Assembly (NCBI RefSeq): GCF_002854065.1
Contig: NZ_CP024148.1
DNA: 62,585 nt
Reading direction: 5' to 3' (one strand)
From: Escherichia coli
GTDB lineage: Bacteria; Pseudomonadota; Gammaproteobacteria; Enterobacterales; Enterobacteriaceae
Part shown: positions 60,401 to 62,585 of the stretch, one piece after another
Layout: every line of letters begins with the position of its first letter
Position numbering within the stretch: the stretch's first letter is position 1
Position numbers: made by a program

Positions 60401-62585
60401 AAACAGCACGAACTTTATTGAAACACTTTTCAAAATATTCTTTCGGATATTTTGGGGGAAAAGTGATTTGTTTTTTCAAATACCAGGGCTGAGGCTGCTT
60501 TTTACGTGTTTTCTCTGCTACAGCATCTTTCTTCTGTACTTTCTTGTTTTCATTAACTGCTGATTTTTGTACTTCCTGCGGCTTTTCATTCACCACAGGA
60601 TTTTCTGGCATGACCAGAACGCGGCGTTTTTTGACCACAATCACGGGTGTTTTTTTGGGCTGCATACTCGCCTCAATAATTGCTGTCATATTGACTAATT
60701 ATACCATATTCACCAGTTAATATCCTGAAAATACATGGAAAAAGGGGGTATCCGTACAGAATACCCCCTTTGTAAAGGCGCTTAATGCCAGAACCACATC
60801 ATCCCCAAAAAGGCGGGCTTTCGCCCGCCTCCGGGTTGCTACTTACCGCCGGATTCGTAAGCCATGCTTGCCGTAACCTCCCTGTATCCGTCCTTCAGCC
60901 GGATTTCGCACAGGCGATTCCGGGTCAGGAGTGTGAATATTAACAACGTGCAGCACACGATTAATACGCACCAGATAAGGGCGTTTCCCGGTAGTTTCAT
61001 GGCCTTCTTCTCCTTGCGTAACGCGCGGTAAGAGGCTATCCTGATGTTGTTCAAGCATTGGGATCGCCTCGTGGGTTAATGAAAAATTAACTACGGGGCT
61101 TTCTTCTTTCTGCCGCACAACAAGATACAAACCACCTTTTCGCCATGAGGCAGAAAGCCTCAAGCGCCAACAACATTATATATCGACCAGAAACTTGAAA
61201 ATACATGGTATTGCGTAAAGGGCGGTAAAAGTCTATCCTGGTGTTGTTGAAGTATTGGGATCGCCTCGTGGGTTAATGAAAAATTAACTACGGGGCTTTC
61301 TTTTTTCTGCCAGACAACAGGATACAGTGCGCCTTATATCCCCGTCCTTCAGGGCGTGGAGGATGTCAAATATTGACCAGGAATTAAATTCCCAGCTTTC
61401 GGCGTGGACTATACAGTGTGTGATTCACCACGATGAATCCTTTGTTGATCCACTGTGTTACCTGCGCAGGTTGAACTCCGGTCAGCCTGGCGAACGATGC
61501 CTGATTCCCCCGATAGAACTTGTTGATGTATTCAATCAAAGGCATTTTTTAATTCTCCGAAACAACGCAAAATCATATAGTAATTTACTATATGATTTTT
61601 ATTTCGCAAGTGATTAACTCATCGGATTTCTTTGTAGTTAACGAAACGTTAAATTTAGTTTGTGCCTGGAATGGCACGCAAGAAGCACACTAGCATTATT
61701 ATTTTGATCAAAACGCTATTTCCCCCGTCATTGGGGGGCTTTCTTTTTTGATGCCGCGCCAGCGGCATGGAAGGCGGCACTCCGTTGTTACATATGATAC
61801 TGGAGTAAAACCGCCGAAGCCCGGCGTAAGCCGGTACTGATTGATAGGTTTCACCTTACCTATCCCCATCCTGCTAAGCCATACCCGCTTTCAGCCATGA
61901 AATAGCTTTTGTGCGCGGTCGGAGTGGTCCCGACAAGGGTTTACCCGCAGTCGGGGCGTATCTCCGCGTTAGCGGGCCGCCAGGACCGCTTACGAGCGTG
62001 TACTTGGTACTTCCAGCCAGAAGACTGACAGCCATGTAATTTCTTAGTTACAACATCCATTATTGAAAGCGATGTTGTTCCCGCCCTTCGGGCGGGGGCG
62101 GCGGCGCTTTTCAGTGATGGGTTGGGCGCTGTGGCTGAGTATTTGCAGCGTTTTTTTGTAAGAGGGTTGGAGGGGCTTTGTTTTTCATTAGGCAGAAGTC
62201 CATATGCCCGCCGCGAAGCGGTGGGAGGTACTTTTATATTCTGAGCGGCGCGGCGTTAGCCGCTGCAAGCGAAGGCATTTTTGTAATTATCCACAGTTGT
62301 TTCAAAGATAAATATTTTCCCTGCGGCGAAGCAACGCAGGGGATTAAAGAACAGGGGTTAAGAATATATTGCGGGTTTGATGTTCTATGTTTGCTGCTTT
62401 CTGAAGCTATTCCTTTGCGGGTTTTTGTGGATAACCGAAGGCGTTTTTACTCCGATACCCTATTGCGGCCATCAAAAAACTGTCAGAGCGGGACAAAATG
62501 AAAAACGGTCGTCAAATATGAGGAATTTCATGAAATGCAGGCAACACGAAAAGCCCCGAAGGGGCTGAAGAGAGTGCCGATTGTA

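Follow-up and report, generated by a model that had tools for sequence, protein, structure and literature searches.

Plasmids of the IncI complex, IncI2 among them, share a CIS-oriV-ter arrangement, which in IncI2 has been annotated by homology, and all of them carry putative iterons 176-301 bp downstream of repZ (PMC6361801). IncI2 plasmids reportedly have no detectable RNAI homolog upstream of repA (PMC10286972), and in transposon data for TP114 the replication loci were spared. In plasmid R1, oriR and the leading-strand start have two ter sites between them, one of which stops the fork after a full round of replication, and loss of this ter system leads to instability and rolling circles (PMC10331603; PMC4999828). 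Stable maintenance of FII plasmids requires the repA4 region with its ter sites (PMC4398462). We found no experiments on an IncI2 origin in the searchable literature. At the R1 G site, about 400 bp from oriR, priming is said to need primase alone.

The probable replication module lies directly downstream of repA

The window analyzed here, a 62,585-nt stretch of Escherichia coli DNA (contig NZ_CP024148.1), is a circular permutation of an IncI2 resistance plasmid of about 62.6 kb, as revealed by identical circular relatives. The repA stop lies 13 nt beyond the window end, as shown by the end of the repA coding sequence in NZ_AP017622.1, a circular plasmid of 100% identity, so that 62585→61650 on the minus strand lies directly downstream of repA. 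An earlier note, made from the sequence alone, had proposed that this region adjoins the repA stop if the plasmid is circular and the window near full length, and that it probably represents the oriV side of repA. The contiguity seen in the circular relatives and the base-for-base alignment with the post-rep regions of R64 and R100 support both points, although the note had missed a Ter site at 62045-62058.

Relatives show the same layout. An I-type or FII-type RepA gene was found 440-700 bp upstream, in the same orientation, in 39 of the 50 relatives with enough flanking sequence. Together with the circular relatives, this shows that the origin module lies directly downstream of its own repA, in cis. 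The gene-free stretch is very probably the cis-acting replication module of IncI2, with DnaA boxes, candidate initiator sites, a Ter site and a hairpin-rich priming signal. Its features are as follows:

62435-62585, on into window positions 1-13, minus strand: spacer from the repA stop to ori, CIS-like (terminator scan, R64 alignment, repA adjacency)
62426-62434, minus strand: DnaA box 1, TTATCCACA on the repA-sense strand (family-conserved, 165 nt after the repA stop)
62298-62425, minus strand: candidate RepA-binding or iteron region (direct repeats, GCAAAC-type motifs, palindrome)
62287-62295, plus strand: DnaA box 2, inverted relative to box 1 (IncI2-specific)
62207-62225, no strand assigned: GC hairpin CCCGCCGCGAAGCGGTGGG at the distal edge of ori (terminator scan, alignment)
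62045-62058, minus strand: predicted Ter (Tus-binding) site GGATGTTGTAACTA (consensus match, R100 and R64 alignment)
61909-62005, plus strand: most conserved structured core, with nested hairpins CGGAG...CTCCG, GTCCCGAC/GTCGGGG and GCGGGCC...GGCCGC
61751-61839, plus strand: three-hairpin, G-site-like candidate single-strand initiation (ssi) signal (folding, covariation, G4 oric likeness)
61751-61768, plus strand: hairpin A
61773-61815, plus strand: hairpin B
61821-61834, plus strand: hairpin C, CCGGC GTAA GCCGG
61721-61750, plus strand: outer module boundary, terminator-like hairpin TCCCCCGTCATTGGGGGG followed by CTTTCTTTTT (terminator scan, alignment)

Identity to IncI1-type plasmids is about 84% over 61751-62439, and identity to thousands of IncFII-type plasmids is 88-92% over 61751-62119; both matches lie just downstream of repA. 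The ori/CIS regions of the IncI1 plasmids ColIb-P9 and R64 and of the IncB plasmid pMU720 resemble the IncI2 module in having a spacer with a terminator hairpin, only one Ter, on the sense strand, and the hairpin block. IncI2 RepA is 74% identical to R64 RepZ, and distances from the rep stop in R64 and IncI2 are 168 and 165 nt to the DnaA box, 537 and 541 nt to Ter, and 756 and 761 nt to CAGTA. The DNA with the palindrome, the GC hairpins and the GCAAAC-type repeats is about 84% identical between IncI2 and these plasmids, whereas the spacer outside the terminator is unalignable at the megablast level. The IncFII plasmids R1 and R100 (NR1) have the same order of elements: repA, DnaA box, AT-richer origin, GC hairpin, Ter and hairpin block. 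Conversely, their RepA proteins showed no BLASTP similarity to IncI2 RepA, and the origin cores could not be aligned except for the DnaA box and one hairpin.

Spacer and origin

The terminator scan detected a rho-independent-terminator-like hairpin in the spacer, AGCCCCTTCGGGGCT at 62566-62552, followed by a T run in TTTTCGTGTTG. An equivalent hairpin, GCCCCTCCGGGGCTTTCGG, is aligned in R64 and IncIgamma/K1. The stretch between repA and ori thus has the terminator-containing spacer by which CIS is recognized in the I complex, and what is known of IncI1 and IncB suggests that it may function as CIS here.

Only two perfect DnaA boxes occur in the window, while about 0.011 are expected per 936 bp from base composition. 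Box 1 marks the repA-proximal edge of the origin and is aligned with R64 L008 1654-1662 (168 nt after repZ) and with R100 L007 39847-39855 (177 nt after repA1). The earlier note had reported a single box, which is indeed a perfect TTATCCACA exactly at 62287-62295 on the plus strand. This is, however, the second, IncI2-specific box, at whose aligned position R64 has TGTGAACAA; the family-conserved box at 62426-62434, on the other strand, had been overlooked.

Between the two boxes, the direct repeat AAACCCGCAA (as plus strand, TTGCGGGTTT) occurs twice, at 62415-62424 and 62369-62378, and a palindrome, CCCTGCG/CGCAGGG, occupies 62319-62325 and 62335-62341. This candidate iteron region shares about 84% identity with IncI1-type plasmids, and its repeats and GCAAAC motifs are homologous to those of R64. 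The published putative iteron interval (PMC6361801) converts to 62298-62423 of the window. Within the origin, AT content is highest at about 62270-62318, where it reaches 0.60-0.68 compared to 0.57 for the whole window; this stretch is a candidate unwinding region, if a modest one at no more than 0.68. DnaA box 2 lies within this candidate region and may have a role there. At the distal edge of the origin, the motif ACCTCCCACCGC...GCGGGC of the GC hairpin is kept even in R100.

A single predicted Ter site and its deduced polarity

The predicted Ter site at 62045-62058 is the only perfect match to GNRNGTTGTAACKA in the window, including the G6 position (0.033 matches expected). This consensus is that of the chromosomal Ter sites of E. 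coli, of which MG1655 TerB reads GTATGTTGTAACTA, and the 15-mer GGATGTTGTAACTAA equals the TerC/TerG core. The IncI2 site is aligned with the sense-strand Ter of R100 (L007 40214-40227) and of R64, and among 67 family members Ter occurs at the same place with no mismatch in 39 and with at most one in 51. We calibrated its polarity on MG1655 TerB beside tus and on the known direction of TerB, which stops clockwise forks. By this comparison, the IncI2 Ter is non-permissive to forks going from repA/ori to lower coordinates. It therefore corresponds to the right-hand ter of R1/R100.

Of the two inverted Ter sites of R100 (L007 40078-40091 and 40214-40227), IncI2 and IncI1 retain the right-hand one only. 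A search for a second inverted site in IncI2 yielded only a degenerate GCGATGTTGTTCCC at 62068-62081, in 8-bp inverted repeat with the predicted Ter, and we rejected it as a Ter site. Chromosomal Ter sites make up a two-sided fork trap, whereas in IncI2 a single Ter beside the plasmid origin is predicted to meet a unidirectional fork.

A conserved hairpin block resembles the R1/R100 leading-strand start

The many hairpins described in the earlier note are real, with five terminator-like GC hairpins in the region compared to 1.9 +/- 1.4 in shuffles, but they are mostly located in the Ter-proximal candidate ssi block rather than in the origin proper. As single-stranded DNA, 61745-62044 folds with a z-score of -3.85 on the plus strand and -2.08 on the minus strand. 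The block at 61751-62044 (about 300 nt) is 88-90% identical to IncFII plasmids, CCGGCGTAAGCCGGTACTG included, and was found in 4153 of 5426 complete E. coli genomes. Its identity to R100 L007 40200-40540 is also 88-90%, which indicates homology to the R1/R100 leading-strand start, and it aligns with what we take to be the mapped position of that start in R1. In R100, about 398 bp separate the end of the 188-bp oriR from CAGTA (L007 40431-40435), in keeping with the "400 bp downstream" that is said to hold for the R1 G site.

Hairpins A to C (61751-61834) are 94.9% paired over 54 distinct relatives, with compensatory (double) changes in 16 of the 22 pairs. None of 500 shuffles reached this covariation, and slid controls were only 28-46% paired. 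Plain MAFFT alignment with RNAalifold gave the core helices only, because loop-length differences misalign hairpins A to C; these were resolved by a covariance model seeded on close relatives. Stable, covarying hairpins, as expected of an ssi signal, are thus present on the plus strand, the presumed leading-strand template. TACTG follows hairpin C after 2 nt (TA, then CTG at 61837-61839), and the primer is predicted to start opposite T61838, with synthesis towards lower coordinates. The CTG after hairpin C is present across the IncFII/IncI group. The feature is not family-wide: only 28 of the 54 distinct relatives contain a CTG within 14 nt.

In the structured core, RNAalifold on 67 relatives yielded 23 pairs, seven of them with compensatory changes, and two near-invariant G.T pairs that exist on the plus strand only. 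Column entropy is near zero in the core, which partly reflects ascertainment from the 18-mer that collected the relatives. After the core, R100 has GTGTACTGAG where IncI2 has GTGTACTTGG. Homology to IncI1 and IncFII plasmids stops at 61751, and the hairpin just outside, at 61721-61750, may act as a transcriptional insulator.

The phage G4 oric also has three template-strand hairpins, followed within 2-3 nt by (C)TACTG, and its last hairpin likewise carries a mini-hairpin loop of the GCG(A/T)AAGC type (CGGCGTAAGCCG in IncI2, CGGCGAAAGCCG in G4). The hairpins differ in size and order, however, and the IncI2 block is twice as long and linked to Ter. The best local alignment with G4 oric scored 19 compared to a shuffle mean of 20 (Smith-Waterman), so homology to G4 oric was not found, and the local match of CGGCGTAAGCCG and CGGCGAAAGCCG did not exceed shuffles either. 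The resemblance is limited to hairpin I and TACTG. A BLAST search of 50,697 phage records yielded no match to the region.

Three paralogs of the hairpin trio were found elsewhere on the plasmid, in the presumed leading region and on the same strand (nhmmer E-values 2e-12 to 5e-11; also cmsearch). They lie within structured repeats of about 450 nt, each just upstream of a minus-strand ORF. This placement is shared with Frpo and with the leading-region ssi of F and ColIb-P9, which are long stretches of folded single-stranded DNA on the transferred strand, upstream of early genes. Neither the family profile of the oriV block nor the three-repeat profile matched the F or R64 leading regions scanned, where known Frpo/ssi lie, and we rejected membership of the block and the repeats in the F/R64 Frpo family on these grounds. 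The only match in F was an orphan core fragment at F 40684-40786.

Alternative readings of the block

The conserved block could be a protein-coding gene, similar to RepA4 as annotated downstream of ori in NR1/R100. The R100 sequence has an open frame of 128 codons across the ter sites and the block, IncI2 retains a 53-aa remnant with similar residues (61874-62035, minus strand), and 47 of 67 relatives keep the frame open over 50 codons or more. Variation over these 67 relatives, however, shows no excess at third codon positions: mean entropy at positions 1, 2 and 3 is 0.74, 0.75 and 0.68, and 0.51, 0.51 and 0.37 in the core. Codon periodicity was not found in the region, substitutions in the stems are compensatory, and in IncI2 the frame is truncated; the sole RefSeq annotation is a "frameshifted hypothetical" pseudogene, equivalent to 61708-61898 on the minus strand. 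In the repA4 region, moreover, it is reportedly the DNA and not a protein product that matters. We consider a coding role very improbable, and the statement of the earlier note that the region has no credible ORF holds for the rest of it as well. Mechanical ORFs of at least 30 aa do occur, and the 107-aa TTG ORF at 62178-62501 was rejected as a gene, with no Pfam match and an R64 counterpart of only 66 aa. Structured non-coding RNA, the alternative that the note itself had offered, is just as hard to credit. The region does have strong covarying secondary structure and terminator-like hairpins, although covariation alone cannot separate RNA from single-stranded DNA. The covariance-model scan suggested in the note found no Rfam family in the region at the gathering score; the best weak match in a permissive scan had an E-value of 0.053 and 28.8 bits against a threshold of 99 bits, and only sok passed, at 60998-61169 outside the region. 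The single promoter-like site, compared to 2.0 in shuffles, runs from 62305 to 62277 on the minus strand, within the origin and a short way upstream of the block. The block itself is bracketed by a Ter site and lies where the leading-strand start of R1/R100 has been mapped, and its conservation follows replicons and not any regulated gene.

Another reading is that the block is a single-stranded promoter of the Frpo type or an RNA-polymerase-dependent ssi and not a primase G site, or that, lying as it does on the presumed transferred strand, it serves mainly in the conjugation recipient and less in vegetative replication. The three paralogs in the presumed leading region, with their Frpo-like placement, speak for this reading, and NikA-like and relaxase ORFs at 50366<-45718, together with R64 geometry, make the plus strand the likely T-strand. 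Conversely, the family profile has no counterpart where Frpo and ssi are known in F and R64, and the block is tightly tied to repA, ori and Ter in the 39 of 50 relatives mentioned above. Neither a promoter-like site nor a sigma-70-like hexamer pair was found within the block when the duplex sequence was scanned, and priming at the R1 G site is said to depend on primase alone. We therefore regard this reading as unlikely, and the block as probably part of the vegetative replication module.

A proposed model for IncI2 replication

The module as a whole is, with high probability, a theta replicon of the I complex, built like those of ColIb-P9/R64 and R1/R100. By analogy with these plasmids, the repA mRNA would end at the terminator hairpin in the spacer, and newly made RepA would act in cis on the adjoining origin. 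RepA would bind the repeats between the two DnaA boxes, and host DnaA the box or boxes. Together they would open the neighboring AT-richer DNA and load DnaB. Unwinding towards lower coordinates would then expose the plus strand as the leading-strand template, on which the three hairpins would stay free of SSB, and DnaG may prime from the CTG that closely follows hairpin C, in the manner of the R1 G site and phage G4 oric. The leading strand would proceed unidirectionally away from repA and round the circle. On its return, the fork would cross repA and ori and be halted by Tus at Ter, about 200 bp short of the start, which would prevent over-replication and rolling-circle multimers. Since the non-permissive side of Ter faces ori, Tus-bound Ter should also hinder the first passage of the helicase from ori to the hairpin site, and this possible hindrance counts against the proposed mechanism.

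Significance for IncI2 and related plasmids

IncI1 and IncFII plasmids are well known to have the arrangement described here, and the current understanding of how such replicons work is unchanged. The analysis maps, at base level, the IncI2 replication module, which is the backbone of many mcr-1-type resistance plasmids. This map is useful for annotation, because the only entry for this stretch in RefSeq and PLSDB is a "frameshifted hypothetical", and it can be of use in designing mini-replicons and incompatibility and curing tools. The Ter and ssi block of about 300 nt, at 88-90% identity, is common to replicons with unrelated initiator proteins. The block appears to behave as a host-factor-facing module (Tus, primase, SSB) that moves between plasmid families.

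The three paralogs of the hairpin trio are the only new lead. Tentatively, the three-hairpin signal on the oriV side may belong to a family of four copies, all on one strand, presumably the transferred one, a possibility that we rate as rather doubtful. If the copies are functional, IncI2 would use single-stranded DNA signals derived from a G site for complementary-strand priming in the recipient, for early gene expression, or for both, and the same would be expected in the plasmids of about 33 kb that share the repeat. In that case, conjugative priming could make use of the very site at which the leading strand starts in vegetative replication.

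The probable origin region lies directly downstream of repA

The 936-bp gene-free region (window 61650-62585) is 100% identical in many 60-66 kb plasmids of E. coli, Klebsiella, Salmonella and Shigella, which type as IncI2 / MOBP / MPF_T. In one of them, the circular NZ_AP017622.1, the repA CDS ends 13 nt past the end of the match, which bears out the earlier note's expectation that circularisation would place the region next to the repA stop. It follows that the window is circularly permuted, with repA as ORF 14..1042(-) and with 62585→61650, read on the minus strand, directly downstream of that gene. 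IncI2 RepA shares 74% identity with RepZ of IncI1 R64. BLASTP found no similarity between it and RepA1 of IncFII R100, and the Pfam IncFII_repA match was sub-threshold only.

We read the order of features from the raw sequences and from an alignment of the post-rep regions of IncI2, R64, an IncIgamma/K1 plasmid, R100, pWR501 and two other FII/FIC replicons.

Features downstream of repA, in repA-sense order
62566-62552, repA-sense strand: spacer terminator hairpin, aligned with an R64 hairpin
62434-62426, repA-sense strand: DnaA box 1, 165 nt past the repA stop
next: two copies of AAACCCGCAA, GCAAAC motifs and a 7-bp palindrome, from a repeat scan
62287-62295, + strand: DnaA box 2, inverted, within the most AT-rich part
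next: GC hairpins, one kept even in R100
next: variable A-rich spacer
62045-62058, - strand: Ter site
61751-62044: hairpin block of ~300 nt, near-invariant in all seven aligned replicons, with a sharp end at 61751

The earlier note had flagged a perfect DnaA box, TTATCCACA, which is present exactly at 62287-62295(+). That box is the lineage-specific one, absent from R64, whereas the family-conserved box, a second perfect match at 62426-62434(-), and the Ter site, both on the minus strand, had been overlooked. The two DnaA boxes are the only perfect ones in the 62.6 kb, with ~0.011 expected per 936 bp. The R64 and R100 boxes lie 168 and 177 nt past the rep stop, compared to 165 nt for IncI2 box 1. 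The AAACCCGCAA repeats, GCAAAC motifs and palindrome lie where putative iterons have been placed, 176-301 bp past repZ (PMC6361801). The AT-richness of the candidate unwinding element is only modest.

Conservation falls into two layers

The spread of BLAST hits revealed two layers of conservation. IncI1-type plasmids match at ~84% across window 61751-62439, and thousands of IncFII-type plasmids match at 88-92% across 61751-62119. In every case examined, the match followed repA directly and shared its orientation. Part of the region was found in 4153 of 5426 complete E. coli genomes. Matches to 61650-62585 occupied a median of 2 and a maximum of 9 places per genome; 57 of these places were chromosomal and may represent integrated plasmids or stray Ter/ssi (single-strand initiation) blocks.

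Relatives of the block were gathered with one exact 18-mer from one-genome-per-species contigs, yielding 78 loci, of which about five were chance matches. The 67 distinct relatives (56-94% identity) came from Pantoea, Erwinia, Serratia, Yersinia, Klebsiella, Citrobacter and others. Where enough flanking DNA was available, a RepA gene lay 440-700 bp upstream of the block in the same orientation in 39 of 50 relatives (13 I-type, 26 FII-type).

A putative polar Ter site faces the origin

Across the whole window, only GGATGTTGTAACTA at 62045-62058(-) matches GNRNGTTGTAACKA perfectly, against 0.033 matches expected. Its polarity was set by comparison with MG1655, in which TerB reads GTATGTTGTAACTA on the + strand directly upstream of tus. 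TerB is known to stop forks that travel clockwise; the blocked fork is therefore the one that runs 5'→3' on the consensus-reading strand. The putative IncI2 Ter would thus block forks from repA/ori heading to lower coordinates. A perfect Ter in the same place and orientation was found in 39 of the 67 relatives, rising to 51 with at most one mismatch.

IncI2, R64 and the IncIgamma/K1 plasmid have this Ter alone; R100 has it together with one of opposite orientation nearer to oriR. R1 has two ter sites between oriR and the leading-strand start: the counter-clockwise fork is halted immediately at one, and the clockwise fork at the other once it has completed its circuit (reviewed in PMC10331603). 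Loss of Tus-Ter makes that plasmid unstable and leads to rolling-circle replication (PMC4999828). The IncI2 site is the counterpart of the R1 site that halts the clockwise fork. As the non-permissive side faces ori, the site should also hinder the helicase on its first run to the hairpins; R100 and R64 have the same geometry.

The hairpin block carries a proposed G-site-like priming signal

The high hairpin density that had drawn attention to the region was borne out by folding, terminator and repeat scans. RNAalifold on the 67 relatives predicted nested helices in the core of the block (61909-62005), with compensatory changes in 7 of 23 pairs and two near-invariant G.T pairs that exist on the + strand only. 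The distal end holds three hairpins, A, B and C, at 61751-61834(+). A covariance model built from this hand-drawn structure and a seed of 13 close relatives found and structurally aligned 57 matches, with 94.9% of cells paired and double changes in 16 of 22 pairs, the alignment being fitted to the model. None of 500 shuffles equalled these values, and slid controls were 28-46% paired. There were 35 G.T cells versus 13 A.C cells. As ssDNA, the + strand folds with z = -3.85 versus -2.08 for the - strand. It is the + strand that would template a leading strand synthesised away from repA.

Reading along the + strand, TA-CTG comes directly after hairpin C (CCGGC GTAA GCCGG), with the CTG at 61837-61839. 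Three hairpins are likewise present in phage G4 oric; the last of them, GGACGGCG AAAGC CGCCGTCC, precedes CTA-CTG, and the annotated G4 primer begins opposite the T of that CTG. The likeness is architectural, as overall sequence similarity is not significant. In R100, the equivalent of the hairpin C / CTG site lies ~398 bp past the end of the 188-bp oriR, in agreement with the R1 G site, ~400 bp downstream of oriR. A CTG is close by in 28 of 54 relatives and is not kept in all divergent ones, so that we infer the exact start nucleotide.

In six Pantoea, Pluralibacter, Klebsiella and Kluyvera contigs (L010, L019, L032, L054, L064, L074), the three-hairpin element lies ~170-190 nt farther from the core than in IncI2/IncFII, separated by an unrelated insert (TAACCCCGGTGAGCGGGC...). 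The block halves are therefore separable. F plasmid NC_002483 (L087) carries an orphan core fragment at ~40.7 kb (40684-40786(-), profile positions 154-279, E 4.6e-11), with neither a Ter nor a three-hairpin part nor an FII-type repA detected beside it; the block is absent from F's interrupted RepFIC replicon.

Alternatives to an origin module

Could the region instead encode a structured ncRNA, as the earlier note proposed with a covariance-model scan as the check? This is very improbable: Rfam gave no support, the one promoter-like site falls within the origin, and shuffles hold more such sites. That the conserved block is protein-coding and RepA4-like is just as hard to credit, as the frame shows no codon-position periodicity among the 67 relatives and is truncated or frameshifted in IncI2, where a frameshifted pseudogene is the region's only RefSeq annotation. 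The earlier note's view that no credible ORF exists held up; small mechanical ORFs are present, none convincing by Pfam, R64 counterpart, RefSeq or codon periodicity. A 107-aa TTG ORF was rejected as a gene, having no Pfam match and an R64 counterpart of only 66 aa. It is improbable that the block acts instead as a Frpo-type ssDNA promoter; the family profile has no match in the F or R64 leading regions.

Neighbouring loci and leading-region repeats

Three ~450-nt direct repeats, probably in the leading region by oriT/nikA, have strong ssDNA structure (z = -4.5), with partial copies near 54888 and 56856. On the + strand, which also carries the three-hairpin element by oriV, each repeat holds a paralogue of that element (nhmmer, E 8e-12 to 5e-11), and each is placed directly upstream of a minus-strand ORF.

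Repeats, their paralogues and adjacent minus-strand ORFs
55530-55985: repeat; paralogue 55690-55868(+); ORF 55600<-55268(-)
57528-57983: repeat; paralogue 57690-57866(+); ORF 57544<-57221(-)
58438-58891: repeat; paralogue 58597-58774(+); ORF 58560<-58126(-)

The repeat occurs in 1258 PLSDB records, ~33-kb plasmids included, and shows no detectable relation to the F and R64 leading regions. Closer to the origin, 60093-60689(-) encodes a ProQ/FinO-family protein (Pfam 4e-17); a protein of this family in mcr-1 IncI2 plasmids, possibly the same one, reportedly controls copy number (PMC8053102). A full hok/sok locus follows (Rfam sok 98 bits at 60998-61169(-); Hok ORF within 60839-61054), then a second, partial sok/upstream copy at ~61200-61310 (gggatcgcctcgtgggttaatgaaaaattaactacggggctttct repeated) without a Hok ORF. 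A 53-aa HTH-like ORF at 61384-61545(-) has a weak, sub-threshold match to Pfam YdaS_toxin. On its oriV side lies an IncI2-specific stretch of ~190 nt (61560-61750), closed by a terminator-like hairpin on the + strand (61721-61738 and a T run); this may represent a small divergent transcript or insulate the edge of the origin module.

Relation to known replicons

These homologies place the region, as a predicted member, with the CIS-ori-ter-ssi module of I-complex plasmids and with the IncFII oriR-ter-G-site ('repA4') region, and by homology it would work as they do. The same organisation was stated earlier for IncI2 by homology (PMC6361801; PMC7508951), so the finding is correct and already known. 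The two initiator families have little in common (R64 RepZ and R100 RepA1, 23% identity over 102 aa, E = 0.011), yet the IncI2 and IncFII blocks are 88-90% identical. This fits a unit that is under host-factor constraint (Tus, primase, SSB) and/or swapped between replicons.
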